Shown here one piece after another: positions 1-31,197 of a DNA stretch of 64,000 nt; within the stretch, counting starts at the first letter, position 1, and each line of letters opens with the position of its first letter. The stretch is taken from positions 96,001 through 160,000 of the IMG/VR virus record IMGVR_UViG_3300035137_000026; one strand, written 5' to 3'. Source of the DNA: a virus. The notes under the pieces were generated by a model, which saw only the letters and a program-made list of their open reading frames with translations, was not told the DNA's origin and searched no databases. The position numbers and the translations under genes are program-made.

Positions 1-2389
1 TCGTAGACAGGTGCTGGCCAAAGAGTTCATGACAGACCCAGCTCACTATCTGAAGATTGATAGACTGATGGGCGATCATATGGCAGATGCAGAATACCGA
101 ATTCAGAAGAACATGGTAGCCTTGGCTAAGAAGTTCAAGTTCTCACCAGAAGAGATGGGACTTACCTTTGGCCTTATGGATGCTAAGAGAGCTGCTGAGC
201 TGGGTATTGCTGCAGAAGTAGAAGCAGCACCTGGTGTCGTCGGTCTATTCAAGGGACGTCTGGGAGATCTGGCATTTGAAGGCGGAGCTGGCGGACTGGG
301 TAAGTTTGAGCAGACAGGCTTCCGTCTCTTGGCTATGAAGGGTGAGGAGGGACAGAGGTTCGCTGCTGAGCTGGCTACTAGAATCCGTGGCAAAGATGAA
401 TTGATTCCTGCTAATCGGATGATGGCTAGTGTGCTCAATGAGATGGAGCTTACAGAACGACTATCTAAGATAGCAGGCAAGGCTCCTATTGACGAGCGTA
501 CTCTAGCTCAGATGACAGCTGGCGACTTACTCAGAGAAGAGGGTCGGTATGTCACTATCGGTCGGAAGATTCAAGCTTTCGGCGGGGCCAAACAAATCTA
601 TATTCCTGGCATTAAGGAAGCTCAGGGAATGATGCTCCCTACTATTACAGACAAGGGACAGAGAATCCCATCTGATATTAGTAGAGGACTAGAGGATTTA
701 CGTGGCTTGGTAGCCAAGGGCGCAGCCCAAGAAGAGATTGAAGATGTAGCTGCTAGACTCAGAACATCTATCGTCCAGCAAACAGAACTACAAGCCTCGG
801 CTACAGGGAAAATCCTTGGAACTCGGTATCTTACAGGTATTCGACAAACTGCTGCTCAGACAGCACAATCTAATGCTGCATTCAGAATCTCTCCTCGCAC
901 AGCCAACAGAATGTTTGAGGACTTGATTGACCGTGCACAAGGCACAGAGCAGAAAGCCTTCCTCAATATGCAGAAACGTAAGCTTCTGGATGAGGGAGAG
1001 CAACTTATAGGTGGTGTGTGGCGTCATCCAACCACAGGACCAGAAAGCTTCCAGTTTGTTCGCTATCAGGTAGACAGAAATCTAGCCGATGAGCTTATTG
1101 CCGCTCCCTACCAAATGGGAGAGATTGTTCTGGGTGGCAAGCGTCATAAGGTAGATGTTTCGGCAATGGTTGGTATGAAGGGCGACTTTGACAAAGATAT
1201 GTTCAATATCGCTGCTATTTCCGACAGAGATACGGTTAAGCGTCTAACAGCCAAGATGAAGAATGAGGTCGCTGAAGGTTATACAGGCTACTTGTTTAAC
1301 CATTACGCTATGAAGGATCTGATTGATCAACGTAAGGGACCGATCAGTGATCTTGTTAACCTAACTAGACAGGAAGCTCTTGAGCAGGGTGCACGCAATC
1401 TGACGACAGCCAAAGTTGCTACTCCACAAGTTAACCTAGCTCTGCAGAAACTCAAGCTTGGCCTGCAATATGCAGCTCCGAAAGAGTATCGTCCTATGGC
1501 TGAGCTGTTCTGGCATCTTGAGGAGGTTGCTATTGGTGGTAAACACGGTGCTCAACAGAGTAGAATGTATCAGGATATTGCTCATGCCGTAAGACAGAGA
1601 GATGCTTCAACCCTCGAAAGTGTTATCAAGACATTAATGGGCGAGAAAGACAAAGTCATCTCGGGTCAGATAACAGGTCCTACAGGAGACCTTGTGCCTC
1701 AGACCATGAAGTATAGCCCAAAGCGGTGGGCTGATCAGGCTATGCAGGCGGCAGTATCTGCTAGTGAGGATGTAGAGATTGCATACAAGTCTGCTCGGGC
1801 AGCTAAGGGTATAGTGCCACAGGATATGTCCACATTGGTTGAGATGTATTATAAGCGTAGAACAGGCTCGTTAGATGTGGCTCAATCTGTAATGCATTCC
1901 AAGTCTTATGGTATGCCAGGATTTACAGAGAGAGCTAATAGAGTATTGCGTCAGGCCGGCACAAAGACTCGAGCTATTCTTGGTGCTCTAAGTAAAGCTA
2001 AGGCTCCAGCTCTTGTTGGAGCAGCAATTGGAGCCGGCATGATGCTGTCTGCTCCTTCTGTGTCGGGCGCACTACAAGCACCCAGAGAAGGCCCTGCTGG
2101 TGGAAGAAATATAAATAACATAGATCTAGGTCCTCCGGCTGGTGTTGGAGTCAATCCTCCACCTCCAAGGATTATGGTATCGCCCAAGGCTTATGATATG
2201 GGTGGAATTAAGATGTCATCTCGTGCTAATATTAGAATGTCTATGCCGGATGCACAGCAGTCTGGTGGAGACTTCATGCGAAACGCTAGAACTTTAGCTA
2301 GTGGCGGAAATGTCAGAGTCCGGACAACAGATGATCGAGAGGCTCTTAGTCCCCACCGATTGGCGAATAAGATACATGAGAGACTGTAA
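1..2389 (+). CDS. C-terminal part of a large virion protein (tape-measure position) with an RNA polymerase beta-prime-like catalytic region; 5'-truncated
   Basis: The frame is open back to the window edge (cgt aga cag gtg). Motifs occur in beta-prime order: RISPRTANRMF, WRHPTTG, MKGDFDKD (1184-1198), GARNL, EEVAIGGKHG. A Gly/Ala-rich hydrophobic segment lies near the C-terminus, and the gene is directly upstream of the hub gene. Confidence 0.65.
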   Translation, partial: RRQVLAKEFMTDPAHYLKIDRLMGDHMADAEYRIQKNMVALAKKFKFSPEEMGLTFGLMDAKRAAELGIAAEVEAAPGVVGLFKGRLGDLAFEGGAGGLGKFEQTGFRLLAMKGEEGQRFAAELATRIRGKDELIPANRMMASVLNEMELTERLSKIAGKAPIDERTLAQMTAGDLLREEGRYVTIGRKIQAFGGAKQIYIPGIKEAQGMMLPTITDKGQRIPSDISRGLEDLRGLVAKGAAQEEIEDVAARLRTSIVQQTELQASATGKILGTRYLTGIRQTAAQTAQSNAAFRISPRTANRMFEDLIDRAQGTEQKAFLNMQKRKLLDEGEQLIGGVWRHPTTGPESFQFVRYQVDRNLADELIAAPYQMGEIVLGGKRHKVDVSAMVGMKGDFDKDMFNIAAISDRDTVKRLTAKMKNEVAEGYTGYLFNHYAMKDLIDQRKGPISDLVNLTRQEALEQGARNLTTAKVATPQVNLALQKLKLGLQYAAPKEYRPMAELFWHLEEVAIGGKHGAQQSRMYQDIAHAVRQRDASTLESVIKTLMGEKDKVISGQITGPTGDLVPQTMKYSPKRWADQAMQAAVSASEDVEIAYKSARAAKGIVPQDMSTLVEMYYKRRTGSLDVAQSVMHSKSYGMPGFTERANRVLRQAGTKTRAILGALSKAKAPALVGAAIGAGMMLSAPSVSGALQAPREGPAGGRNINNIDLGPPAGVGVNPPPPRIMVSPKAYDMGGIKMSSRANIRMSMPDAQQSGGDFMRNARTLASGGNVRVRTTDDREALSPHRLANKIHERL

Positions 2390-2394
2390 AAACT

Positions 2395-5300
2395 ATGCCT
2401 AAAACTATATACGATCAGCTCCCCGAGTACCAAGATCAGACAACAGAGGCTACTCTCCCAGGAGAGAATGGTCAGGATGTGCCCGCAGGTTCAATCTATG
2501 ACCAGCTACCCAATGGTTTTGGAGAGGGGCCTATTCCTGATGAATGGGTTCCAGGAGCAAAACAAGATCGCCAGAAAGCAGCGGATTTCTTCCGTCAGGA
2601 AGTAGATTTCCGTGGCTTTCCAGATGACTTCTTGATCATCAACGATGTTGTTATCTCTGGAATTCCCACCACAGCTGTATCGATTGAATCTAGTAATGAT
2701 GTTGTTGTAGCAGAGACTCTTAGATCTCGCTCGCCAGTGGTGTCTACTAAGGGTACTCAGAGTATCATGGTAAACATCTCTTTGGTGTTTCCTCCAGGAC
2801 AAGAGCAGTCATATAAACTTCGCCGGTTGATTTCAGAGCTACAGCATCATCCGTTACTTTATGTATACAATGGTAAGATTCGCAAGTCCTTAAATATAGT
2901 CGACCCATCTGAGAATACAATCTTTGTTCTCGAGACGGCTACAATGCGTAGTGACTCCGAGCATACTGGTTCAATTATACTAGATATGACTCTACACTAT
3001 TTCAACTATAAGCCATTCTCACACCACTTCTGGTACAACACAGAATTGCCGTGGACTAAGCCAACGAAAGAACAGGCTGGTGATGATACAGAGCCTAATG
3101 AGCTATATCTAGGTGATCTCATAGGATATGAGGCATCATCTCATTCTATGGATAGAGAGTCTGAGAAGATGGCACGTGATTTGTACAATGGCACAATTGC
3201 TTTGTTTGGCGAAAAGCCAAATGCACCAGTCAATATGCCAATGGCTTCTAAGTCCTGGATGTACTATGCCTCGCATATGTATATGAAAACATGGGCTGTC
3301 AAGGAGACTACCAGTGACTACGTAGGTATCCATCTAAGACAGTATGAGTATAGAACACCAGATAGTGATGAGGCTCGGGCGGGTCGTGGTGCTATTAAGG
3401 ATATATTTAGAGAAGTGACCGAGGATGATCTGCCAAAATTCAACTACCATTATAAATCTCAAGTAGATATACCAAAGGAACAGTATGCAGACCTGACTGC
3501 CACTGAGCGACAGGCACATCATGCGATTGACAAAGAACATGCTCCGCCACCCAAACCAACTGGAATAGATTGGCTAGATACCCGCAATGAACTTGTTTCT
3601 ACATATGGTATTTCAGTATTCGCCGTAAAGAATGGTTTAACACCTGGTGTCTTGAGTCCAGTATTAGCTAATGCTGATGGGTCATATCGAAGCTTCCAGA
3701 ATGCCAGCAAGTGTAACATTCACTTTTTTGAAGTTCTGTATCGCAGCGGTTACGAAGTCTCAGTGGTGAAGACTAAATATGGAAAAGGCTATCCACAGAT
3801 TGGTGGTATGCTTCGTCAGATCCGGAGTCCTAGACTTAAGTGGGGTATTCGTATTTCTACTAAGACAAAGTCTCAGATTAATAAGATCATCCAGACTGGT
3901 GTGCCATGTGGTTTGTTAAACAACTTTCACGTTGTTATTCTGACCAAGGTACACGAGGTAGAGCATGCATCAGATGGAAGAATTACTCGTATCAGATTTG
4001 CTGGCTATGATCAAAAGAAGCTTGGCGAATATAAATCTTGGACATGGACAGACAAAAAGACTCCTGGGGGCCTAGAGATTGTACAAGCTATTCCATCTGG
4101 TACGAGACCGCCATATCGTAATCCTCTTGGCCCGATCAAGAAGAAAGATGCGGTTGTTGAATTTGTTAACAAGGTTAATAAGGCCGAGACCAAACAGACT
4201 GGCGGTAAGCAGGACGGCAAGATACTTAAGGACAATAGAAGCGCAACCAAGCGAATGAACTGGATCAAGAAGATATACTTCAACGAAGGCCTTGAATATT
4301 ATACTGATGATCAGAAAGTACGAAACGTATTCTTTAGAGATATTAGCTGTCATGTTTCTAGCGATCCGATTAATGTTGAACTGATTAACAGACAGAATAT
4401 TGTGATTGCAGAAGACATGGTAACATCTGCTGTGTCGGTAACATTCGGCAATCGCCTTGCTAAGCAAAAATTGCTAAGTCAGGATACTCATACATGGCAG
4501 TTCTTGGGTGCCGGCAATAAAACTGGCACCCTAGTCTTCACATTTGCTGGCGATACAGGCCGTAGGTCAGCTGATAATATCAAGAAGATAATCTATGAGT
4601 CTCGTCGCAATGCTAGGAAGTTTGGTTCTGTTATTCCTGATGCTGGCACAATCAAACTATCATGGGAGGCTCCAGATGGTCGGCAATCTCCAAATACAAT
4701 TTTAGCTTTGTTTGCTGGCAGAACAGGTGAGCATCCACAGAAGGATATGAGTGTAATCGTCACTGATTTCTCAGAGCAGAGCGATCCAAATAACTCAGAC
4801 CTGCACCAGCTAGTAGTCAACTTTATTGTTCAGGACTTTGCAGAAGAGAAGCTAGACAGAAATGTCTTTACTTCTCTGGATCAGAAGAAGCGTGTTCTTA
4901 GTGTTATCATGGATAAGTTTGTCTCTTCTGGTTGGGTTACACCCCAAGAAGATTATGAAGATAAAGACAAGCTTGAGGAAGATGGTAGACTTTGGTTTGT
5001 TGCTGCCAATCCAGAATATATTCTTTATCGAGATACCAAGACAGTTCGTGAGGAGTATCTTATACAGAAACACGTAGAGGGTACAGGTGTTGTCGGTGGT
5101 GGTGCTCGCCCATTTAAGATTGTTGGTAATAAAATCCCAGCATGGCTTGCACCTATTATCATTGAAGCTGTGGCTTATACAGTTAGAGCAAACGATAAGC
5201 TTCCGAGATGGGATACTACTATTTTTGATACTTTTGCCGCTGAACGTCACATGAAAGGTTATAGAGACAATAACGAAACCAAGCGATTGCCAGGCCGTTC

Positions 5301-8300
5301 TTCTTCTGGGCCTGCTGGTAATGTGACACATCCTGGTGAAGAGGTTAATGATCGTGAAGCAAACAACAGGCTGGTGGATCAGATCTTTAATGAGTGGAGT
5401 ACTAATATGGATATTGTATTCCAGAAGATCATGCAACATGCTACTGCTTCTGACTTCAAAAATCACTTTGGTGAGATCGGAGACGAACTTGTAGATGCAT
5501 TAGTGTCTCAGATGGGCGAATGCTACGATGATTTGATGCTACCGCCTACACCTGAGTATAACGTACCTCTACCACCAGACTTCTATGTGTATGATGACTC
5601 GCATGAAGATCCGGCGCTATCCACACTGACAGATGATGGCAATATCGAATTGCTTCTGCGACAGCATTTGCGTAACGAGCGCAAGTCTGTAGCTCGCTAT
5701 CTAGAGGACTATACACTCGGTGGCTCTTATATGTCTAGAAACGTAGAGTTCATCAAGTCTACTCGAGATCATTATGTTTCTCAGATGGACAACGAGATAA
5801 AGTTCATTAACTTTAGTCAAATGTTGGCTGAGGGTTGCTCTACTTGGGAGCCAGTATTTTATAGAAATACAGACCCTGTCTACAATGAAGCTACGGTGAA
5901 GAAGTGGACAGATCACGTTCTTAGTAAGGGTGGCGGCTCAGAAGATGAGAGCCGTCAGACCTTTATGGAGAATCTTGTCAAGCTCAGTCCTTATCTAGGT
6001 GGAGAAGCACGACATTGGATGGCAGACAAGGATCAGCCATATAGTGAAGTTGTAAATCAGATCTATGAAGAGAACTGGAAGCGTCTTGCCTTTGGTCCTA
6101 ATCCTGACTATCAGGCTGCTGATACTGTCATGAATGGTAATCCAATTGATCCTCAAGCTGAGGCTTCACGTCAGGCTATTAAGAAGACAGAATCGGAAGA
6201 GCAGGCCGAAGCGCAACAGAATGCTGAGACATATGGGCCGCATCAAACTAAGATGGAAGATGGTTCCATTACATTCGGCCAGAGCCAGAATGAACGAGAC
6301 GCAGCAGGTTCTGGTATCGGCGGAGCCATTATGGAAGCCTTAGGCACGGTTGGATCATTCTTCTTGGCCACAGCAGAGGCCACAAACCCTGTGATTAGTT
6401 TAGCTAGCAAGGGTATCTCGGCTCTCGTGCAGACAATGAATCACGAAGATGTCAAGAATGTATTCAAGGAAGAGAATGAAGACAACGTCCGTTCTAAGAC
6501 TGCAGCATCTACAGCACTTGGTACAAAGTGGAAAGATCTAAGTATTAGACGTGTGTTCCCTACATTTAAGATATACTTCATTGAAGACGACGAATCAGGA
6601 ACAGAGATCTTACAAGGGCGTACAATCAGAGCATTCGATGACTTTTATTCCTACTCGGCTGTACAAGAGATTAGGGTAATTCGCTCTCGCAAGGTAGCTG
6701 CAGACTTGGCTATTATTCGAATTACCAATGTCGGTGGCAAGTTGCTGCGTAGGCGCTTTGGTGAAGAATCGCAGTATGAGAAAGACCAGAAAGCAAAGTT
6801 TGGTATTGAAGCTGAATATGAAACAGGTATTTTTGCTGATACCGAGAAGGAGAACCCATTTGAGAGAATGGTTCTTCAAGATGGTGTGAAAGTTCAGATT
6901 CGTTTGGGATATGCTAGCAATCCGGACCATTTGGAAACCGTATTCCTAGGTAGCATTGTGGAAATGTCACCTCGGGAAGATGGAAAGATCATAGAGCTGG
7001 TGTGTCAAGGATTCGGAGCTGAGCTAGAAGGTGTAGAGTTGGGGCCTCTGGAGGATGGCCCAATCTTCTATTCCTCACAGCAGGTTCTGTCTGGAGCTAT
7101 TATCCAAGATAGTATTGTTAACTTTGGTCGCCGCTCTAGATGGAATAGAACTCCATCGGCTGAGCAGAGACATCAGTTCACCGGTGGTGAAGGAACTGGC
7201 ACTCTTGGGCAGGTAGGGCCAAGTTCAGTACTAAGAGCTTGGGCTGAAGCACGACAAGGTCGCATGAGCTTCAAGTACCCCTTTAGGAACTACCCACAGG
7301 ACGACAACATTTTTGCGCCTCCTCCAGCTCAGTATGCTACTAAGTGGATGAGGTTCTGGAATAATGCTTGTACCTACCGGCCGCTCAAACAGACACCGTG
7401 GCAGGTATTCAAAGAGCACGAGCTTAGACATCCAGGATATATCTCTCTAGCGGTACCATATGGTCACTCGCCTCGTATGACTATGTTCTTCGGAGCTAAG
7501 GGTCAGCACTATTGGAAGGAACCACCTACAGGACTAGAAATGTTCTTAGCTGAGAGTGCAGAGGAAGAGATCATCAGACTGCGTGGACTGAACAAGGCTC
7601 AGCGTAACCAGGCTCAGTTTAGACAGAACCTGGAGAAGATCGCTAAAGAGAATACGGCTTTGGCAAATGCTATTCTGAAGGGTGTCTCTTCATTCTCTCA
7701 TCCACTTGATGTAGGCACGAAGCTTGGTGAGATTTTTGGTCGCTACAGACCATTCAGAAACTATCATTACTTCGATTCTTCGCACCATATCCTTAAGAAC
7801 TCCATCAGCACAAACCGTGATGGTACATTCAATGAGGTTGAAGTTCTATACTTCTCAGATGAGAATGACATTGAAGAAGACGATATTGATGAACTCGTCA
7901 CCAACCTTGAGCAGCTATCTCGAGGCGAAGCTGGCCTGATGGCTTGTCAGCTGGACGAGAATATGCCTGAAGAGTATATCCGCTCTTACAGAGAAGAGTT
8001 CCCCTCTTGTGTGACGGATGACATGGCTAGACGATACGTCCAGGGTCTGTTTGCACGGCTGCTTAGAGACAGCTACAAGGGTGAGCTTATTGTTCTAGGT
8101 GAGCCGACACTCAAGCCATACGATGTATGCTATCTCAATGACTCGAGTATCAACATGACTGGGCCTATTGAAGTAGAGCAGGTAGAACAGATTTTCAATA
8201 GAGATTTCGGGTACATATCAATCATTACACCTGACATGTGTCTTGATATCAATGACTACTACAGCGCAACGACATTTGACCTAACAGCTGCTAGTATGGC

Positions 8301-8673
8301 TTATACATTTGGTCTGGACAACCCCGACACAGCATTATCTTTGGGTATGTTGGCTTCGCCTCTTGGAACCTTAGCTTGGGCTGGTGGCGTAAAGCTGATA
8401 AAACATACACAGGATGGTGTTCCTGTAATAGCTACGCCATTAGTGCTAAATGGCAAGCCTATGATGAGTGTAGCTATGGGACAGAAGAGGGGCTCACTAT
8501 TGCTTAAGTGGCATGGCCAATGGAAGCAGTATAGAGATGATCTGGCAACTGCTTGGAGTAAGTTTGATATTGCTGAGTCGATGTTCCAGGATGGTCTTGA
8601 TCGACAAGAAAGTCTATTTGGCTTCTTTGGAGCTGAGATAGGCGAATCTATACCAACCGCCGAACCTGACTAG
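2395..8673 (+). CDS. Giant baseplate hub / tail-tube-initiator fusion protein with an internal Cys/His peptidase-like domain
   Basis: 2092 aa. The C-terminal third has hub-like features (QEIRVIRSRKVAADLAIIRITN; VKVQIRLGYASNPDHLETVFLGSI; IELVCQGFGAEL). Two tube/Dit-like beta-rich segments are present, plus SKCNIHFFEVL...FHVVIL. It lies upstream of the wedge genes. Confidence 0.6.
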   Translation: MPKTIYDQLPEYQDQTTEATLPGENGQDVPAGSIYDQLPNGFGEGPIPDEWVPGAKQDRQKAADFFRQEVDFRGFPDDFLIINDVVISGIPTTAVSIESSNDVVVAETLRSRSPVVSTKGTQSIMVNISLVFPPGQEQSYKLRRLISELQHHPLLYVYNGKIRKSLNIVDPSENTIFVLETATMRSDSEHTGSIILDMTLHYFNYKPFSHHFWYNTELPWTKPTKEQAGDDTEPNELYLGDLIGYEASSHSMDRESEKMARDLYNGTIALFGEKPNAPVNMPMASKSWMYYASHMYMKTWAVKETTSDYVGIHLRQYEYRTPDSDEARAGRGAIKDIFREVTEDDLPKFNYHYKSQVDIPKEQYADLTATERQAHHAIDKEHAPPPKPTGIDWLDTRNELVSTYGISVFAVKNGLTPGVLSPVLANADGSYRSFQNASKCNIHFFEVLYRSGYEVSVVKTKYGKGYPQIGGMLRQIRSPRLKWGIRISTKTKSQINKIIQTGVPCGLLNNFHVVILTKVHEVEHASDGRITRIRFAGYDQKKLGEYKSWTWTDKKTPGGLEIVQAIPSGTRPPYRNPLGPIKKKDAVVEFVNKVNKAETKQTGGKQDGKILKDNRSATKRMNWIKKIYFNEGLEYYTDDQKVRNVFFRDISCHVSSDPINVELINRQNIVIAEDMVTSAVSVTFGNRLAKQKLLSQDTHTWQFLGAGNKTGTLVFTFAGDTGRRSADNIKKIIYESRRNARKFGSVIPDAGTIKLSWEAPDGRQSPNTILALFAGRTGEHPQKDMSVIVTDFSEQSDPNNSDLHQLVVNFIVQDFAEEKLDRNVFTSLDQKKRVLSVIMDKFVSSGWVTPQEDYEDKDKLEEDGRLWFVAANPEYILYRDTKTVREEYLIQKHVEGTGVVGGGARPFKIVGNKIPAWLAPIIIEAVAYTVRANDKLPRWDTTIFDTFAAERHMKGYRDNNETKRLPGRSSSGPAGNVTHPGEEVNDREANNRLVDQIFNEWSTNMDIVFQKIMQHATASDFKNHFGEIGDELVDALVSQMGECYDDLMLPPTPEYNVPLPPDFYVYDDSHEDPALSTLTDDGNIELLLRQHLRNERKSVARYLEDYTLGGSYMSRNVEFIKSTRDHYVSQMDNEIKFINFSQMLAEGCSTWEPVFYRNTDPVYNEATVKKWTDHVLSKGGGSEDESRQTFMENLVKLSPYLGGEARHWMADKDQPYSEVVNQIYEENWKRLAFGPNPDYQAADTVMNGNPIDPQAEASRQAIKKTESEEQAEAQQNAETYGPHQTKMEDGSITFGQSQNERDAAGSGIGGAIMEALGTVGSFFLATAEATNPVISLASKGISALVQTMNHEDVKNVFKEENEDNVRSKTAASTALGTKWKDLSIRRVFPTFKIYFIEDDESGTEILQGRTIRAFDDFYSYSAVQEIRVIRSRKVAADLAIIRITNVGGKLLRRRFGEESQYEKDQKAKFGIEAEYETGIFADTEKENPFERMVLQDGVKVQIRLGYASNPDHLETVFLGSIVEMSPREDGKIIELVCQGFGAELEGVELGPLEDGPIFYSSQQVLSGAIIQDSIVNFGRRSRWNRTPSAEQRHQFTGGEGTGTLGQVGPSSVLRAWAEARQGRMSFKYPFRNYPQDDNIFAPPPAQYATKWMRFWNNACTYRPLKQTPWQVFKEHELRHPGYISLAVPYGHSPRMTMFFGAKGQHYWKEPPTGLEMFLAESAEEEIIRLRGLNKAQRNQAQFRQNLEKIAKENTALANAILKGVSSFSHPLDVGTKLGEIFGRYRPFRNYHYFDSSHHILKNSISTNRDGTFNEVEVLYFSDENDIEEDDIDELVTNLEQLSRGEAGLMACQLDENMPEEYIRSYREEFPSCVTDDMARRYVQGLFARLLRDSYKGELIVLGEPTLKPYDVCYLNDSSINMTGPIEVEQVEQIFNRDFGYISIITPDMCLDINDYYSATTFDLTAASMAYTFGLDNPDTALSLGMLASPLGTLAWAGGVKLIKHTQDGVPVIATPLVLNGKPMMSVAMGQKRGSLLLKWHGQWKQYRDDLATAWSKFDIAESMFQDGLDRQESLFGFFGAEIGESIPTAEPD

Positions 8674-9923: not shown

Positions 9924-11177
9924 ATGCCATTTTTTCCACGTGAAGAGAAAGACATAGTCTCTGAAGCATTACAGAGAATGAGTCGCTCTACTAATATCAC
10001 TCAGCTGGCTCCGGGTGGTAAGGCGAGATTCTTCCTTACAACCGTTGCTCGAGAGCAGGCCCGTCAGCAGGCTCTATTCGATGCCAATTTACTTCAACCA
10101 TACATCAAGTATTCTGAAGGTAAGTTCTTAGACTTCTTTGGTGACATGCTCAATCTTCCTCGGGTAGAGGCGACACACGCAGGAGCAGCCAACGAGAACT
10201 TTATGTTCTATGTACAGAGTGGTCGGTTTACTGATTTAAATTCAGGCTCACCATTTACTGTTCCTGTTGGTACGGTGGTCGGAACAGTTCCGTTTGACGG
10301 CACTACCGTTACTCCAGGTCTTGAAGTTCAGGATACTATTGAGTACAGAACTACAGAGTCTGTGGTGTGTGAACCGACAGCCTCTTATGTGTATGCTCCA
10401 GTTAGGGCCACAGTAGAAGGTGCTTATGCTTCTGTGCCTCGTAATGCGCTGACACAACACGGCTTTGATGGCTATGCACTGGCCGGCACCAACCTCCTGA
10501 AATGTACTAACAAATATGCAATTGATAATGGTGTAGATAGAGAGAGCAATGAGTCTTATCGCTATAGGTTGGCCAATATCTTTACGGCTCGGAGTCAAGC
10601 AATGTATGTCAGTATTCGTCTGGCAGCGTTGAGTATTGCAGGAGTAGCAGATGTTGTTATGGTGAATGCAGAACAGGGGCCTGGCACGTTTGCCTTATAT
10701 ATTCGCAGCATTACGCCATCTGTTAGTCCAGAGCTGGTGACTGCAGTATCTACGGCTGTGAATGAAGTGGTTGCTTATGGTATCCGTCCATTTATTTCGG
10801 CACCTAGAACTCTAGGTATGGAGATGGTTGCTGCGGTGAACTGGTCTCCTCGAGCAAGCAAAGAAGAGATTGCAATCGGTTATACAAATATGCGGAATAT
10901 AGTTGAAGAAACCATCAACGAACTAGATATTGGAGAGGCATTAAATTTGACGGACTTGATTGTCGCAATGCTAGACGTTGCTCCGAAGGCAAATAGGATT
11001 GGTCAGAATATGGTGAACACATTTGAAGAAGTATATGTACATCGATCTAATCCGACTGCTGAGAGCGTGACCACACGCAATCTTGTTTTCTCTGATTATA
11101 TTGAGCCGCTATACAATGAAAGAATTCTACTAGAAACATCTACCCGCTATCGTGGTATTCAGTTCATAACATTCTAA
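9924..11177 (+). CDS. Baseplate J-like wedge protein
   Basis: FLDFFGDMLNLPR, TVPVGTVV, PVRATVEGAYASV, NGVDRESNESYRYRL, AALSIAGVADV are typical baseplate-J motifs. Confidence 0.85.
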   Translation: MPFFPREEKDIVSEALQRMSRSTNITQLAPGGKARFFLTTVAREQARQQALFDANLLQPYIKYSEGKFLDFFGDMLNLPRVEATHAGAANENFMFYVQSGRFTDLNSGSPFTVPVGTVVGTVPFDGTTVTPGLEVQDTIEYRTTESVVCEPTASYVYAPVRATVEGAYASVPRNALTQHGFDGYALAGTNLLKCTNKYAIDNGVDRESNESYRYRLANIFTARSQAMYVSIRLAALSIAGVADVVMVNAEQGPGTFALYIRSITPSVSPELVTAVSTAVNEVVAYGIRPFISAPRTLGMEMVAAVNWSPRASKEEIAIGYTNMRNIVEETINELDIGEALNLTDLIVAMLDVAPKANRIGQNMVNTFEEVYVHRSNPTAESVTTRNLVFSDYIEPLYNERILLETSTRYRGIQFITF

Positions 11178-12837: not shown

Positions 12838-13781
12838 GCGGACGTAAACTACAAGGGTTTTCAATATATATCGAGCTTCCTACACAGGTAGAAGGCACTC
12901 CTGGAGTCCGCAATGTTGTCAATAATTTTGACTATCACGGTGACTTGGTGTCTCTCCGTAGGCTGCATGGTGAAAGTAATGCAAAGTACAAGCAGAGGCT
13001 TATGGATGTCTCGGTGCATCCAGGTGGACCACTATACGAGCAGGTAGTGAGCGGCCTAGCTAGAGATCTAGGATACCTCCGAAAGAATGCTCTTGAGATT
13101 AACATCAAGTATAATAGTGCAGGCGACCCAATAGCGCAGAATCCTCTAGTTGATGTTCTCGCCAATAGAGTTGTTCTCTATAGTGATTGGCGACCAGATG
13201 GCACAGAAGTCATTGACATGGAGATTCGAACCTATCAGTTGGGCGATCCTGGATATTATCTAGATGACCTGGTGGTAGAGATCAATAAGTCGGAGTACTT
13301 TTCGGCTTCGCTAGTGGACGACATCAGACCAAATACTATTACTTCTACTTTGGTTCGAACTAACTCAAGACACATTGTTCCCGAGGCATATATCCGCTCA
13401 GATCAGCTGCAAGTGCTTGATAATCAAAACATTATCGATGGTACTCTGGTCTTCTTTGAGAAGATAATCTTTGAGACAGAAGTAACCGGAACTCCTTCCG
13501 CTGACGGTGAATATGCGGTAAATTACGTATCTGGAGAGATTCAGTCATATCTCCAGCCATCCGGTCAGAGCTATTGCTCATATCAGTATAATGAGTTCCC
13601 ACTGATAGTTGATGCTGTACCAATTCAGGTGTTTGCATTCCAAGATGACGACTTTCAGTATGAGCTGTTCCAGCATGAAACTCTAGATTCCGGTGAGGTT
13701 GTAAATAGCCTGCCCAACGGAGAGGGCTCAGAAATCTATCATCAGCTGTTCACGCAGACTGAAGTATTCTGGGGCGAGTAA
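12834..13781 (+). CDS. Baseplate wedge-associated structural protein
   Basis: 315 aa; FDYHGDLVSLRRLHGESNAKYKQRL resembles the wedge-protein motif; ATGA overlap with the previous gene. Confidence 0.5.
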   Translation: MSGRKLQGFSIYIELPTQVEGTPGVRNVVNNFDYHGDLVSLRRLHGESNAKYKQRLMDVSVHPGGPLYEQVVSGLARDLGYLRKNALEINIKYNSAGDPIAQNPLVDVLANRVVLYSDWRPDGTEVIDMEIRTYQLGDPGYYLDDLVVEINKSEYFSASLVDDIRPNTITSTLVRTNSRHIVPEAYIRSDQLQVLDNQNIIDGTLVFFEKIIFETEVTGTPSADGEYAVNYVSGEIQSYLQPSGQSYCSYQYNEFPLIVDAVPIQVFAFQDDDFQYELFQHETLDSGEVVNSLPNGEGSEIYHQLFTQTEVFWGE

Positions 13782-13783
13782 TT

Positions 13784-16063
13784 ATGGCAGTAACCAGACC
13801 AAGTATAAATTTTAGTACTAAGCAGACGGTGTATCATCGTGAGAGCATGAAGCCTTATGTTGGCTTCGAGAACATAGATGATATGCCTGATGGATGGCGT
13901 TTTGACATCAAACGCTGGTGTAGTCCTTTCGACCTAAGACTGCCAAAAATGCCTCGTCTATCTGATACCTCTACTCAAGGTGTATCTGAGTCGATATACT
14001 TCAAATCTGGTGTTGGATCTGTAGATGCTGGTGATGTCTACATGAAGAGTATAGACGAGTTGTTCCGTGACCACGAGAGACACTGGATTCCTATTCTCCG
14101 TACAGGCCAGTATTTTCGCTACAAGACGCCATGGTATCTATATGGCGACAACAGTAGAGTACAGTATATTAGCTCAAGTGAGAATCGTGATGGACGCAAT
14201 TATCTAAAATTAGATGAAGAACCTGACATGTCTTCACCTATCTTGGCTTCTTCTTTCCGACGAGTCACTGCGACAAGAACTCCTATGCATGACACTGTCG
14301 TACAGCAGATGTATGAGTTTTCGGGTGTCTATGTAGATGAAGAAGAGCAATCAACTGTTACAGTGATGGGCAATATCAACTGGAATAATGTTGACTATAA
14401 CAAGCGTGAATTCATTGTTGACACCAGTATCGAAGGCACAACCAGACTATTCTTCAATAAAGACTACACTGAGACTGTAGGTGTAGTTCCAACATACTAT
14501 CAGGATTTAGCAGCCTGTGAGGTCCTTGGCTTATCTAATGGTTCTAACTACCAGGTCTATTATCTCAAACGATTCCCAGTGCTTGCAGACAATTCCTTCC
14601 ATTTGTATGTAGCGGACGTCTCTACTTGGGAAGAGTGGACTCGAGTTGATACATGGTTCGAACTGATTAATTCCACAGCTCAGAAGCAATATTTCGTCGA
14701 CAAGGACTTGGGGATTATTTATCTTGGCTCGTCTGTTAATGGCGGATGCCCACCGTTGGGTCGCTATATTGTTTGTAGCTACGATGTAACTCTAAGAGTA
14801 GAGTATGAAGAGTCAGAACGGAAGATGGAAGTTAAGGCCTGGGAGGCAGACACTAGCCCGGTGACACAATATATCAACCAGGGCTTTGTGTGTATTACGC
14901 ATGACCAGCTCGAGGCCGCTATTCTCAAACTTGAGATTGACAAGGCTATGATTCCATTTACTCATGCCCCTCGAGAGTACGGGCCTATCTACGTTGGCTC
15001 TGACTATGGAATCCTTAAGGCTACTGTGACCACAATTGGCGGAACAGTTGTGCCTGGTATTGAGGTTGGCTTCGAGATGACACCATCAACCATCGGATAC
15101 CTGGCCGGGTCAGCAACTTCCACATCTGTGACTAACGGTAGAGGAGAAGCATACACCTCTTACCAGCCACCAGTATCTGCTGATACGCTAGGTTTCTATA
15201 CTGTCACAGTAAGAGCATCTACTAATCCGTACTACCCAAATCACAAAGAACTGATTATCAAAGAGACTGAGACTGGACTAGAAGGCCGAGAAGAAGAAGT
15301 CTATACATTCCAGGTACTTAAGGATGACATTCTGCTGGGATATGCTACTGTTGACGATTGGATTTACTACAATCTGGATGCTCCGTCTTGGGTAGTAGAT
15401 GCGACTACATATGCACAGTGGAAGTCTGAGATAATCATCGACTACGAGTTGGAAGATTGGGCTGGCGTACAGGCAGATGGTACAATTGTAGGAAGAAAGG
15501 TTGTTATCTACAAGCTTGATCCTAGTACTGAAAACTATGATTCTTCGGCTGTACATCCAGCCATAGGCGATATGGGGGCTGTTGTTCCTCTCCGGCCTGA
15601 GCTAGTAGAGAAAATCACGGATAGTGGTGATGATTATTATGGTTATTGGCGAGTTATCTATCCAGAAGATGCTATCGCTGATTGTGATCCCGATGACAAC
15701 AATAACAACATTGGTGGTTACTGGCTGTGCTCAAGCAGAGTAATAACTTTCAAGGCACATTGCTGGAGCCCCTACTATAATCGTATAATATATAGCAATG
15801 ATCTTGTGGTGAGGATTTCACTGCCAGACTACTTGCTTGGCGAATACACAAATGATTATCTGCAGAAAGTCCCATTTGGCTGGAAGCTACCAACGGATAC
15901 AGACAATGTGGCTGCAGGGCTCAATGGAGCCACCTTTATAACTGTGAATCCTCACTCTGGACCATATAAGATTGTAGATCTCGTGAACGAGACCACAAGC
16001 GATGACTGGGCATCGGCTCCATTTAAGAGTATCGGATTCCAGATGTACATCGAAGAATCTTAA
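13784..16063 (+). CDS. Virion structural protein with an Ig-like (Big_1/invasin-type) domain
   Basis: 759 aa; ILKATVTTIGGTVVPGIEVGF...SVTNGRGEAYTSY is a Big_1-like signature. Confidence 0.55.
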   Translation: MAVTRPSINFSTKQTVYHRESMKPYVGFENIDDMPDGWRFDIKRWCSPFDLRLPKMPRLSDTSTQGVSESIYFKSGVGSVDAGDVYMKSIDELFRDHERHWIPILRTGQYFRYKTPWYLYGDNSRVQYISSSENRDGRNYLKLDEEPDMSSPILASSFRRVTATRTPMHDTVVQQMYEFSGVYVDEEEQSTVTVMGNINWNNVDYNKREFIVDTSIEGTTRLFFNKDYTETVGVVPTYYQDLAACEVLGLSNGSNYQVYYLKRFPVLADNSFHLYVADVSTWEEWTRVDTWFELINSTAQKQYFVDKDLGIIYLGSSVNGGCPPLGRYIVCSYDVTLRVEYEESERKMEVKAWEADTSPVTQYINQGFVCITHDQLEAAILKLEIDKAMIPFTHAPREYGPIYVGSDYGILKATVTTIGGTVVPGIEVGFEMTPSTIGYLAGSATSTSVTNGRGEAYTSYQPPVSADTLGFYTVTVRASTNPYYPNHKELIIKETETGLEGREEEVYTFQVLKDDILLGYATVDDWIYYNLDAPSWVVDATTYAQWKSEIIIDYELEDWAGVQADGTIVGRKVVIYKLDPSTENYDSSAVHPAIGDMGAVVPLRPELVEKITDSGDDYYGYWRVIYPEDAIADCDPDDNNNNIGGYWLCSSRVITFKAHCWSPYYNRIIYSNDLVVRISLPDYLLGEYTNDYLQKVPFGWKLPTDTDNVAAGLNGATFITVNPHSGPYKIVDLVNETTSDDWASAPFKSIGFQMYIEES

Positions 16064-16072
16064 GGAGGCACT

Positions 16073-19000
16073 ATGGCCAACACAATTGATCAGATGCAGG
16101 ACGTCTTTCCTGTTTCCTTTGAGTTTGTAAAGGGTGAGCAGCCTTCGGCTACTAAGCTAACTGGCTGGGTCAAGCAAACCAATACTGCTTTTGCTAGAAT
16201 GACCAAGGCTGTCGGTGACCCTTGGGAATATACGGCACACAGCGGAACAAGCGGAATTTACTTTCTGAGTCCTGACAGACTAGCACAGGCTAGTCTTGCT
16301 CGATTCATGGGTCCGTCAGACTATACTTCTCCTCGAGGCGCATCATTCCAGGAGCCTATCAGTACAGCCTTAGAAGTAAGGTTGCCATCCTATCGGAATA
16401 CGTGGAATCTAGGCTACCCACTTGTCAAACTTACCAGTGATCATCTACCTAGTGATGCTGGTATGGATAAAGTAGAGAAGCTGAACTGGAGTTCTGACGT
16501 TACATATATTAGCGGACCAGTGTCGTATTTTGATACCGAGGTGGCGTCTGCTGACCTTGTAACAGAATATGGTGAGTTCTATGTTGACTACTACACAGGA
16601 ACTATTACAGCCTACACCACAGCAACATCTGAAATAATACTGCAGATTGATAACCTTCATATGTTTGGTCCTGGCCCGGCGTGGGGCACATCCAACATAA
16701 TTCCCCACTGGAATGATGACGCAACTCTCTGTTGGGTAACAATCAATAGTACATCTGGCGGCACTACGCTCTATGATGTGGCCCTGCCACAAGTACAGAG
16801 TACATCTCGGGATACAGATCCAGATGCAGCTCTGCTTGGAGCAGTGTACCATCCAGATATAGCTATTGCTTCTGTCGTACAGTGGAATGCTACGGTATCA
16901 GGAGCTACGGCATATTATAGACTGCCAGTATCACTGACCAACAACTTGACTGCTGGCGACCAAATTCCAGATGGCTTTATGTATGTCTGGGACGAGTCTA
17001 CTGGGCGCATTGTTCCACAGACAGAATTCTTCTATGTAGACGAGCATAATGTTCAGGTACAAACGCCAGAAGGTTGGCTAACCGAGGGTGGCTCGATTAG
17101 ACTTATTGTTACAGGCACAAGTCTGGCAGAAGCGGTTCACCACCTGATGATGGTACAGCGTGAAGGTCGCCATGCGGGCCTCTCAACTGGCCAGCACCAG
17201 GACACTCTGCACTATATGGTTCCTATCTCCCATGATGAGATCGTAGACTCCTTCAGCGGCCCGATTGGTAGTACAATAACAGAGCCCACGAAGTTCTATT
17301 TCCGTGAGTCAACTGCTCCTGTTAATCCACATCCACAGTATATCCATAGAGCTGGATATCTTGATGATGATGAAGAGGGTAACTCTGCTAATGCTATGAG
17401 AGGGTGGCTTGCTTTTGCGGGCCGCTATGACATTGACAGCGCCTATACGATTGGTGCAGGTACTGCTAGTGGCACTATGGGTGCTACCTATGGTCTTATC
17501 TTTGGCGGTGGAACCATAACCACATCTTCCCAGAATGCTCGACTCGCCTGGGAGGGTGGAGAGAATGTGGACACATGGAGTGGTTCTGGAGACACAGCAA
17601 AGAAACTAGGTTTCGGCATAGACGAGCTTGGTGCTCAACGTGTGGGCAGCGAGCGATTCGGCGCTCTTACTTATACCCCATGGTATGGAATGCCTCTGTA
17701 TCTTAGAGGTCAGGTAGATACAGTATTGGTAGAAGCAGTGGGTGCAGTACTAGGCTTTGACTTCGGCGACTGGGGTGAGATGAACTACATCAAACTCACC
17801 AAAGCATTCCGAAGTGGGAGCTGGGACATGCCCAACCAGGCATGCTGGATTGAACAAGCCACAACATCAGCATTGTCGATTACACCAGGTCTTATCGGTG
17901 GAACAACAAGCAACCGTCTGGCAGCTGAACAAATTCGTGAGTTCAGATTCCGAGCCGGTTCATACAATCCAGACACCAGAAATGCAAATGATGGTCTTGG
18001 AAACACAACACAGCCACTGACATTTGATTCGAGTCTCTCTCATGACGCTATTGAAGCAAATGGTGCTAGTAAGTATTTCGTTGTAGATGGAGAATGCGCC
18101 TCAGATTTCCGTGTTGGCGATACAATTACGTGTGCTGGATTTAGCAATAGCGGCAACAATGATGACTTCACAATTACGGCAGTTTCTCAGATCGGCGGGA
18201 ATACACATGTTAGCGTATCAGAGTCTGTAGTTACAGAGCCTTCTCCAACCAGTGCAACGGTGACGTCATCTACAAACGAATTCAATCCCTATTTCACATC
18301 ACCCGGCATGGTTGGAGCTGACTTCTTTAATGTTTATAGCAATGCTATCTTCTTCTCTGATACTGGCGATGGCAAGACCACGTCGTTTACCGACCGTGGT
18401 AACCTTTGGATGAATACTGGAAGTTCTGATAGTATGCCGTCTGGTATCTACTACGTCCCACAAGCCACTCAGGGTCCAGCCATGGCTCTGTCGCTGTATG
18501 ACTCATCCCTAAGTGCCAGCAGCCAGCCATTGTATGTTGGTGACAGATATGGTTTCTGGTATATTTCCGAGGAAGATGGTCCAGTAGGGCTCATAACTAC
18601 AGATTCAGTGTTGATTTCATCTGGACATGATACTGGAAACCTAGCAACCATAGTGAGTAATATCAGAACCTATGGTGATTCTGGACAATTAGGAATCGCT
18701 GCTGGTGACTATGCAGCAGTTCAGGCATCTTACGGATTGGCTGGCTCGTCTATGGGGCTACAGCTCTATGCAAGCGATGACTATCCAGACATTAGAATAA
18801 CTTCATGGCATGGCGATATAGCCATTAGGACATATACATCAGGCTATATTGCTATCGATTCAACCGAATATCTCACAATAGATGCCAATGACGACATAAA
18901 CATCAATGCAGATAATATCTATCTGGATGCAAAAAGCTACATCTTCCTGGATGCTCCAGGCATCAATGTAACCTCAGAGGACTACAGCGTAACTATTAAC

Positions 19001-30600: not shown

Positions 30601-31197
30601 CAGCCAGGCTTTGCTGCTGTGCGTTCAACGATCAATCCTGTTACTGAGGAAAGCCTATTTGTGGTCTATTCAGCCACAACACCTAGTGCTCCAGGCGAAT
30701 GGACCTTCGAGACTCAGGTAGATGGCTCCTGCTTGATAACCGTATACGTACATGCATCGGTCGACCCAACAGAGAGAGACCATACGGCCAGCTACAAATA
30801 TGCCGTGATTGATCCTGGCGTTGATATGGATGGTCTGTACTCTGTTGACTATGAGACTGGCACTATGCACTTTGCTACTGCTATTGAGCTATCTGGTAAT
30901 ATACAGTATGAAGTATCTGCTTATTCAGCCTTCTATAATATTGCTGAGATTGTGCCTGATGGCGACATCAAAGAGATTGATGAAGAAGGTATGAAGATTA
31001 CACTGAGTACTGCTTTGGGTATGAGATTCCTGAAGATGACTACAGCTATGAAGGCTCGGCCTGCCTATGCCAAAGTGGTCTATGACTACTACAAGAAGTC
31101 TACTGAGTCTCTAGCAGATTTAGAACCATACTTCTCACCAATCTGTAAAGACATCGCATTGAAGGCTGTAACGGTGAGCACGATAGAGGAGTTATAA
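27613..31197 (+). CDS. Large virion structural protein with a discoidin-like domain
   Basis: 1194 aa; helical N-terminus, then EAIGDSEPNTWYEY...LTITLDKISVINHIHI. Confidence 0.5.
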   Translation: MPNKHLSRPPTEVMRARLKVLLENVNYLYTAKETVLEEDLVNAYHTAMKLFLTSLDGSICGAVAKILKGSPADPFHYNVFTSSINKDLEALYSEAGALDKLIVSNFNSVIAEREQVLQVSRRVSDKLGTYLLYADPTLGGGYFFGDSFNSAEKIEVGSDLLDTDECFIGQNEGVILLPLDGDPDAPRIKSYTINKPSNGSAGNNYETDVLGKDEIEAIGDSEPNTWYEYERVTAYESDTPLVFDLTITLDKISVINHIHINPINFGTPSPVSIVTLETSKDGLEYVSVKDEVPIKDFVSEEEDNVFDLSPATAKYAGQGFYSFLPRKAQFVHVVLEQYTPYAINTIDGSLLRYAIGIRDINILGRRFKTEGSLISVPVNIGEEARKIALWASENPVEVSMLSDITHAISENDGATWRPIQPQRRSGFDVPEVIDYNTIAKGAIETDIAVKTLRHKISMTRNTDAFSGNVTLKEEKETNIDVLNVPTGGDFSFTTTQPPIRETVRVILPFYGSFSCPTAAYGPSIVGQSQPMDLDFLEFNVDVPAIGTLRYKLPFKNIPNLPEHIRVFVNGEQIEYCSKSDEGIGSVSGTQSFTSYDVVDENSKVYFLNKGGAEIQFGWTDAAGILRGFLPPTGAKIEVCLDGDNPRLELTDAGYVLLLAGSSDGFKENVSLISMNNLSDEEAVDVAIEIPAGRDKVEISSSQPVNTSALSSKKRLKFPAKAGYKTMYDSTQVTRTLSPINIPQSRLLVDSSSDPVEEELDQGMQTIVLEAEDGMLPPVFLEDMDTWQIVEYDIDTGEPLISGLQFTNKVEYIDGRQELMTWSGTEWESDPSAYSFDAYSGRVYTGSLPYTDRKTMFHCKALSVTVVPPDKWEYYKTSVHGRMNTQKIVINPEYVVTHTRIMAVDGTSTPVQSVELIGEQDKGHDWFKQKLVKGTVVMDDSLFPESVKRKEVPYIDGYTELHDTVQIENEEIVFTPIGGNLYTYTLELISDSQAIVGQPGFAAVRSTINPVTEESLFVVYSATTPSAPGEWTFETQVDGSCLITVYVHASVDPTERDHTASYKYAVIDPGVDMDGLYSVDYETGTMHFATAIELSGNIQYEVSAYSAFYNIAEIVPDGDIKEIDEEGMKITLSTALGMRFLKMTTAMKARPAYAKVVYDYYKKSTESLADLEPYFSPICKDIALKAVTVSTIEEL

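Follow-up and report, generated by a model that had tools for sequence, protein, structure and literature searches.

Gene g117, the 3' part of which opens a 64,000-nucleotide stretch of viral DNA (bases 96001-160000 of the 197,730-bp IMG/VR record IMGVR_UViG_3300035137_000026; the whole stretch is referred to below as the window), encodes a protein that is close to certain, at the level of its fold, to be a very divergent single-chain two-barrel RNA polymerase (RNAP) core. This identification rests on fold searches with two confident structure models and on invariant catalytic residues; the protein would be catalytically active and use a DNA template. The polymerase is probably built into the virion and ejected from it to serve as an early transcriptase. 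Virion location and ejection are supported indirectly, by the operon position of g117, its translational coupling, the hydrophobic segments at its ends and a C-terminal module that it has in common with a virion protein of a cultured phage.

The 5' edge of the window cuts g117, so that an open frame (window 2-2389, + strand) continues past that edge. The complete open reading frame (ORF) was recovered from the upstream sequence and encodes 1,489 amino acids at genome positions 93920-98389 (L002:13920-18389). The portion outside the window comprises a Gly/Ala-rich N-terminal segment and most of the beta-like half, including residues K619 and K626. The features that lie within the window, in window coordinates and with residue numbers of the full-length protein, are as follows.

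1..2389, + strand: C-terminal part of g117, 795 codons and the stop codon; the start codon lies 2,081 nt before the window.
284..355, + strand: predicted end of the beta-like (Rpb2-like) half, residues 789-812, a conserved Gly-rich strand/helix closing the first barrel region.
806..1240, + strand: predicted beta'-like double-psi beta-barrel (DPBB-A), residues 963-1107, holding the R-H-P motif and the DFDKD metal loop.
1022-1030, + strand: R-H-P motif, residues 1035-1037.
1184..1198, + strand: predicted catalytic DFDKD loop, residues 1089-1093 (D1089, D1091 and D1093), with a variable position 4.
1367..1474, + strand: long bridge-helix-like helix, residues ~1150-1185, with T1168, N1172, Q1176 and K1179 invariant in the close clade.
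1514..1549, + strand: trigger-loop-like segment, residues 1199-1210, with E1201, K1208 and H1209 conserved.
1973..2068, + strand: C-terminal Gly/Ala-rich hydrophobic segment, possibly membrane-inserting, residues 1352-1383.
2192..2389, + strand: conserved C-terminal tail module, residues ~1425-1489, and the stop codon; homologous to the C-terminus of gp146 of Bacillus phage 0305phi8-36 (0305 below).

The polymerase-like motifs had been listed by an earlier sequence-only reading of the window and are all present where it placed them; they are also conserved in homologues and so are not chance matches. DFDKD occurs once, against 0.01 occurrences expected by chance, the conserved helix starts at about residue 1157 and the E..GGKHG segment spans residues 1201-1210. 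In the proposed architecture residues ~230-830 would form a beta/Rpb2-like half with the first barrel and a conserved Lys pair, and residues ~840-1340 a beta'/Rpb1-like half with the second barrel (RxP and DxDxD), the bridge helix and the trigger-loop-like element. This core would be flanked by the Gly/Ala-rich N-terminal segment on one side and by the C-terminal hydrophobic segment and the conserved C-terminal tail on the other.

An AlphaFold2 model of residues 230-1350, based on a 46-sequence alignment, is confident (predicted local distance difference test, pLDDT, 86; predicted template-modelling score, pTM, 0.82), and a second model was made of residues 940-1340 alone (the C half; pLDDT 81). 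The 73 matches listed by Foldseek against the PDB at E<1e-3 all belong to one or the other of the two largest subunits of RNAPs, with beta, beta', Rpb2 and poxvirus Rpo132 chains among them, and in an unbiased alignment to 48,161 PDB representative chains the best 17 are all two-barrel RNA polymerases. Beta-like chains cover model residues ~1-560 in the unbiased search, and the beta-like half (residues ~230-830) aligns to beta/Rpb2 chains at Z 10-12.8. Individual scores are Z 12.3 for the beta-like chain of the PhiKZ non-virion RNAP (298 residues aligned), Z 11.6 for that of AR9 and Z 9.4-10.5 for the beta-like chains of plastid, vaccinia, bacterial, RNA polymerase I (Pol I), Pol III, Pol IV and African swine fever virus enzymes. 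Beta'-like chains cover model residues 611-1099, with Z 9.0 for A190 of Pol I, 8.8 for both archaeal A' and Pol II and 7.9 for Mycobacterium tuberculosis beta', and generic double-psi-barrel matches start at model residues ~560-590, which corresponds to the window segment 284..355. Single-chain enzymes cross both halves, namely RDR2 (Z 10.8, 472 aligned) and QDE-1 (Z 10.1, 467 aligned), and P74-26 gp62 (Z 7.4) and P23-45 gp96 (Z 5.5) also span both halves of the model.

For the C-half model, the top eight matches are the largest subunits of archaeal, Pol I/II/III/IV, vaccinia and M. tuberculosis polymerases (Z 8.8-10.3), followed by generic DPBB domains over model residues ~24-168, equivalent to residues 963-1107. 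The bridge-helix/trigger-loop region is included in the alignments with archaeal A', Pol I and Pol II, and an ESM Atlas structure search gives template-modelling scores of 0.57-0.58 to clusters with Rpb1_2, Rpb1_3 and Rpb1_5. Strands flank DFDKD in the model and long helices follow the beta'-type barrel. The strands, the DPBB/Rpb1 alignments and the three Asp, which are kept in every family representative aligned, all indicate a beta'-type barrel carrying DxDxD between its last strands, and at the level of the modelled fold a bridge helix and trigger loop appear to follow it. The RNAP catalytic core with a DxDxD loop and bridge-helix-like and trigger-loop-like regions that had been proposed from the window is strongly supported by both fold and conservation. 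A DPBB is predicted around the motif at residues 963-1107, and its partner barrel, which had been sought upstream, is found, at the level of the fold, as the beta/Rpb2-like half in the part of the gene before the window.

Sequence comparison gives no hint of this relationship. Pfam and PHROGs assign g117 to no family; Pfam at E<=10 detects no RNAP family among 30 family members, and PF05183 finds no match in these members or elsewhere in the genome at the same threshold. The family profile has 0 matches among PDB sequences at E<=10, tblastn and megablast against 50,697 phage records return no match for g117, and an Atlas feature search gives no usable match for g117 or for the preceding gene, g116. 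Homologues are nevertheless numerous. There are 48 metagenomic homologues at 27-80% identity, nearly all of ~1,460-1,540 residues with a few truncated fragments, and a profile of the g117 core (residues 400-1345) run against 1.84 billion proteins retrieves 168 clusters at 50% identity, 148 of them with E<=1e-10. A wide alignment was made from 106 full-length representatives (1,355-1,696 residues, median 1,489), with identity to g117 down to ~16%. Divergence is much faster in this protein than in the neighbouring ones: the contig most distantly related (L019/L020 compared with L002) encodes a homologue with 28% identity, whereas identities are 50% for g116, 40% for the hub and 67% for the tube protein.

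R1035, P1037, D1089, D1091 and D1093 are invariant in 30 close homologues. Across the wide alignment, none of the 106 representatives lacks R1035 or any of the three Asp, while P1037 and K619 are conserved in 104 each, K626 in 102, E1201 in 102, K1208 in 105 and H1209 in 90. The Arg-x-Pro motif sought ~35-55 residues before the metal loop is present, with R1035 54 residues before D1089. K619 and K626 (K619-x6-K626) form a hairpin resembling the Lys pair of Rpb2, which Ruprich-Robert and Thuriaux describe as universal (PMC2919709), and in the model its two strands lie where the generic barrel alignments start. E511 and E512, the adjacent acidic residues of the first barrel, are conserved in the close clade only. 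Towards the C-terminus, D1471 of the tail module is kept in 99/106 representatives, and a hydrophobic segment comparable to that of g117 is found in 94/106 and in gp036 of Acinetobacter phage ME3. The Lys at position 4 of DFDKD, which the sequence-only reading did not recognise from other polymerases, is really present but peculiar to a sub-clade. That position holds Lys, Arg or Asn in the close clade and mostly Ala (45) or Gly (26) in the family as a whole, with Lys (8), Asp (8) and Arg (6) less frequent, so that Lys, as judged from the alignment, is clade-specific and no defining trait of the family.

The lack of any Pfam, PHROG, PDB-sequence or hhalign match is what would be expected if the resemblance were a chance artefact and g117 unrelated to polymerases. 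This is extremely unlikely, however, since four independent fold searches on two confident models place almost only RNAP subunits on top and the universal catalytic residues are invariant.

The gene lies in a + strand structural module at 62.8-132.8 kb that includes terminase, portal, major capsid protein and sheath genes. The order is sheath, tube paralogues, chaperones, g116, g117, hub and baseplate; it is the same in eight related viral contigs and also around a member only ~17% identical to g117, whose hub has a Peptidase_M23 domain. Homologues of the tail module are found in 0305 and ME3, as listed below.

g111-g113: homologues of the 0305 tube paralogues gp140-142 (up to 3e-41).
g114 and g115: homologues of the 0305 split tail chaperones gp143 and gp144.
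g116: homologue of 0305 gp145, a mass-spectrometry-verified virion protein (5e-69).
2395..8673, + strand: g118, baseplate hub/tail lysin of 2,092 residues; homologue of 0305 gp147 (phmmer 1e-26) and ME3 gp037.
9924..11177, + strand: baseplate J-like wedge protein, marking the downstream baseplate block.

The stop codon of g116 overlaps the start of g117 as TAATG, and g118 starts 5 nt past the stop of g117. The sequence-only reading was correct in placing g117 at the tape-measure position directly upstream of the hub, as both the synteny and the homology of g118 to 0305 gp147 and ME3 gp037 indicate; the gene follows the chaperone homologues, with one gene between, and precedes the hub and baseplate genes.

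The slot occupied by g117 is that of 0305 gp146 and of ME3 gp036, with the same module order and homologous flanking genes. ME3 gp036 (1,603 residues), which is annotated only as hypothetical, is a member of the g117 polymerase family. Its DHDQD follows an R-E-P motif, and it also has a K-x7-K pair and a hydrophobic segment close to either end; its BFVD models match the g117 model at E 7e-7 and 3e-6. The 106-sequence profile was compared with a control set of 593 sequences, consisting of the phage's own proteome and the ME3 and 0305 tail-module proteins with reversed and shuffled copies. Besides g117, it matches only ME3 gp036 (21.8 bits, E 1.4e-6) and the last 150 residues of 0305 gp146 (25 bits, E 1.5e-7), the next E value being 0.21. 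A six-frame search of the ME3, 0305, Ma-LMM01 and P23-45 genomes with the core profile found nothing, and hhalign of the family against ME3 gp036 gave no significant match. 0305 gp146, described as a 'hypothetical tape measure', has been found in virions by mass spectrometry. By this profile match, g117 and a protein known from virions that fills the equivalent slot have a C-terminal module in common. 0305 gp146 differs in its length of 2,537 residues, in lacking both DxDxD and hydrophobic segments and in its assignment as the tape measure.

This assignment raises the question of whether g117 could be a true tail-length ruler with a fused RNAP domain in the manner of P23-45 gp96, as the sequence-only reading had entertained. 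Such a role would be consistent with the slot and C-terminal module that g117 has in common with 0305 gp146, but the fusion is unsupported and this explanation is very unlikely. In place of the multi-thousand-residue chain of a tape-measure-fused RNAP, or the long extended helical protein of a length ruler, g117 has 1,489 residues with a globular core; three quarters of it is modelled as a compact alpha/beta enzyme (pTM 0.82), and with residues 230-1350 assigned to this enzyme only ~370 residues are left for a ruler. The family is uniform in length (1,355-1,696 residues) without long forms, and a search for fused forms among proteins of 2,607-5,000 residues found none, which is weak evidence. 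An alternative ruler candidate is g116, which directly follows the chaperones. These results suggest that the 'tape measure' assignment in the 0305phi8-36/ME3 phage lineage needs re-examination.

Homologues of g116 (1,390 residues in this genome) vary in length from 1,390 to 2,610 residues. This variation was considered as a ruler signature and rejected, as the extra length consists of discrete inserts that are inteins at the sites checked. The homologues of 1,769-2,610 residues (L009:4689-9998, L011:4657-9996, L015:2157-9989, L017:4653-9989 and L020:4533-9920) carry one to three inserts of ~290-440 residues, for which there are three conserved positions. At two of these positions the inserts checked start with Cys-Leu or Cys-Val, and the resolved C-terminal junctions end in His-Asn followed by Ser, which is the intein signature. 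The g116 copy in this genome has no such inserts. The inteins in its homologues, in what may be a protein of the tail lumen or of ejection, point to very conserved, perhaps catalytic, sites in g116.

In the scheme proposed for g117, the protein would be produced late together with the tail proteins, and its C-terminal module would dock it in the virion, inside or beside the tail lumen and hub. Upon tail contraction it would exit with the proteins of the tape-measure region, its hydrophobic ends would anchor it at the inner membrane and the anchored enzyme would transcribe the genes that come first on the incoming DNA, with no need of the host RNA polymerase. The best available, if indirect, argument for incorporation into the virion is the C-terminal module common to g117 and the proven virion protein 0305 gp146. 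A broader version of this scheme, in which the slot protein throughout the 0305phi8-36/ME3-type lineage (at least 168 clusters) is a membrane-anchored ejected RNAP that keeps the virion-docking module and that, in phages such as this one, is the sole phage polymerase and also helps to pull the 198-kb genome in by transcription at the entry pore, is possible but doubtful as a whole.

Several points weigh against a virion-borne early transcriptase. A 165-kDa enzyme in its folded state cannot go through a tail tube, so either unfolding or an unusual location must be assumed. The structural likeness to the only proven RNAP of a tape-measure locus, P23-45 gp96, is weak (Z 5.5-7.2). The putative correspondence of K619/K626 and E511/E512 to K979/K987 and E836/D837 of Rpb2 is drawn from the motif pattern and the secondary structure of the model. 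No repeated phage-specific promoter motif rises above shuffled controls in the intergenic regions, as judged from k-mer enrichment upstream of genes, from comparing 92 intergenic regions with one another by short blastn and from 10-mers allowing a single mismatch; the words recovered are Shine-Dalgarno-like, purine-rich or tRNA T-loop-like only. Finally, a search of the genome for a second RNAP (PF05183 at E<=10, a paralogue search and a six-frame DxDxD scan) gave nothing convincing, and sigma-70 region 2 (PF04542) was not detected; PF00940 also found nothing in the genome, the control genomes being silent as well. With neither a second RNAP nor sigma-70 region 2 detected, the enzyme may not be limited to an early, injected role.

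The last of these points bears on the possibility that g117 is an active RNAP but not, or not only, a virion component, being instead a general or late transcriptase made in the cell whose gene merely lies in the tail operon. As the only RNAP-like gene detected, in a genome with no T7-like, YonO-like or second DxDxD candidate, it may need to transcribe beyond the early genes. This explanation is nonetheless unlikely. The gene is translationally coupled to tail genes with mass-spectrometry-verified virion homologues, its position is conserved across very deep divergence, its C-terminal module is common to the virion protein 0305 gp146 and a soluble enzyme has no need of terminal hydrophobic segments. 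An enzyme made with the late structural genes would also appear too late for an early role outside the virion.

The missing promoter motif also bears on a different proposal, namely that g117 is a structural or ejection protein that reuses a polymerase-like fold to grip or translocate DNA, or to make primers or short RNAs, with no promoter-dependent transcription. The unusually variable position 4 of the metal loop would be in keeping with this, as would the sharing of slot and C-terminal module with 0305 gp146, which itself lacks DxDxD. However, the Arg/Pro pair, the three Asp, the Lys pair and the trigger-loop-like E/K/H are invariant or nearly so over 106 clusters down to ~16% identity, the pattern expected if nucleotidyl-transfer chemistry is retained, and this proposal is unlikely.

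Few virion-delivered RNA polymerases are known: those of N4 (T7-like) and of the PhiKZ-type phages (multisubunit, carried in the head), crAss-like gp66 and P23-45 gp96. To our knowledge, a virion-carried transcription enzyme has been shown only for phages unrelated to the one that encodes g117. The literature consulted, including a 2026 jumbo-phage review, was found to describe no single-chain two-barrel polymerase from the tail operon of a myovirus.

The RNAP of P23-45 gp96, which is encoded at the tape-measure locus, is carried in the virion and transcribes pre-early genes (PMC10770324). Like g117, gp96 (with its relatives in P74-26, G20c and TSP4; PDB 8H2M/8H2N) is a single-chain two-barrel RNAP at the tape-measure locus of a tailed phage, escapes sequence searches apart from its DxDxD and has membrane-type segments in the same protein, and the two presumably share the role of transcribing the first genes to enter the cell. 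In contrast to the stand-alone, 1,489-residue g117 of a contractile-tailed phage, gp96 has 5,002 residues, its RNAP forming the N-terminal part of a genuine ruler, and belongs to a siphovirus. Its similarity to the g117 model (~12-13% identity at the Z scores given above) and that of P74-26 gp62 fall below those of cellular RNAPs, and hhalign of the family against residues 1-1200 of gp96 is not significant (probability 0.1%). P23-45 also encodes a non-virion RNAP, gp64, whereas none was found in the phage of g117.

In phi14:2, which is a crAss-like phage, the virion RNAP gp66 is ejected to transcribe early genes (bioRxiv 10.1101/2020.03.07.982082; PDB 6VR4). It shares with g117 a large single-chain two-barrel architecture, a DFDxD motif with a residue other than Gly at the fourth position and a location among virion genes. 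It differs in being QDE-1-like, in its 2,180 residues and in its podovirus-like phage, in which neighbouring cargo proteins are packaged along with it, whereas g117 lies in a myovirus tail operon. 6VR4 is absent among the matches listed for the g117 model; a crAss-type 'RdRP' in BFVD matches the model at E 5.6e-5.

The PhiKZ and AR9 RNAPs (PDB 7OGP/8QUE and 7S00/7S01) are the best match of the beta-like half (Z 11.6-12.8) and are likewise two-barrel phage enzymes of large myoviruses; PhiKZ-type phages also inject a virion RNAP. Their enzymes are multisubunit, with split and scattered beta and beta' genes, can be identified with Pfam and are carried in the head, whereas g117 is one chain, encoded in the tail operon and unrecognisable by sequence. 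YonO, QDE-1 and the RDR enzymes (PF05183) resemble g117 in being single chains with the beta-like barrel before the beta'-like one, and QDE-1 and RDR2 align over both halves (Z 10.1-10.8, ~470 residues). However, the best matches of g117 taken half by half are multisubunit RNAPs, and in its close clade the first barrel retains a pair of adjacent acidic residues, like the multisubunit enzymes.

Virion-delivered RNAPs allow an infection to start without the host enzyme and to escape host control and some defences. The g117 family would add to them a cellular-type polymerase in one chain, invisible to sequence searches and encoded in the tail operons of large myoviruses, with at least 168 clusters at 50% identity. 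Because it is invisible by sequence, the family has been missed by all routine annotation; the nearest BFVD structural match of g117 bears no annotation other than 'minor tail protein'. The present analysis adds the census, the table of invariant residues over 106 clusters, the membership of ME3 gp036, the module common with 0305 gp146 and the clade-specific Lys. The link to cultured phages through ME3 gp036 and 0305 gp146 makes the idea of a virion polymerase directly testable, and the compact beta-beta' fusion of ~1,100 residues could be useful for studies of minimal two-barrel polymerases.

The cultured relatives differ from the uncultured phage of g117 in that 0305 (gp99) and ME3 (a split gene) each also encode a YonO-like polymerase. 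The YonO-like gp99 of 0305phi8-36 has been described previously (PMC2147016) and scores 1e-20 against PF05183. The ME3 locus (NC_041884.1, 222114-226849, minus strand; loci L038-L039) appears to be a second, split two-barrel polymerase. It consists of a 798-residue ORF ending in V-R-N-P-S (RxP-like), a 243-residue endonuclease-like ORF and a 358-residue ORF with DVDGD near its start, and the 798-residue product (A0A172Q0S6) matches the g117 model in BFVD at E 1.7e-6. The polymerase model also matches a piece of a giant MaMV-DC protein (A0A075BUT7; E 1.3e-5) and, weakly, a Ma-LMM01 protein (probability 0.6) in BFVD. The 3,562-residue hypothetical protein gp080 of Ma-LMM01 (NC_008562.1, 57700-68388) might be a counterpart of g117.

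A second DxDxD-like motif in the window, G-N-D-Y-D-S-D in g136 (31197-33377, + strand, 726 residues), was rejected as a chance occurrence. The product is a beta-rich protein of the tail module that matches no family and shows no other polymerase feature. Words similar to GGTTCGAATCC, which correspond to the tRNA T-loop, recur in about ten 'intergenic' regions (for example 13679-15635 and 17241-18199) and suggest a sizeable set of tRNA genes. The 'direct terminal repeat' of the record (G000:C1:1-127 and 197604-197730) is exactly 127 bp long, which is a common maximum assembler k-mer length, and is more likely the sign of an assembly closed into a circle than of genuine virion ends; the repeat was therefore not used for placing the genome ends. 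The tube paralogues g111-g113 (L002:5773-8260) match PHROG 9206, whose label is 'major head protein'. RefSeq gives the same product name to 0305 gp140 and gp141 and to ME3 gp030, whereas the notes in these records say tail tube, and the head label on these tail tube paralogues has apparently been propagated in error.

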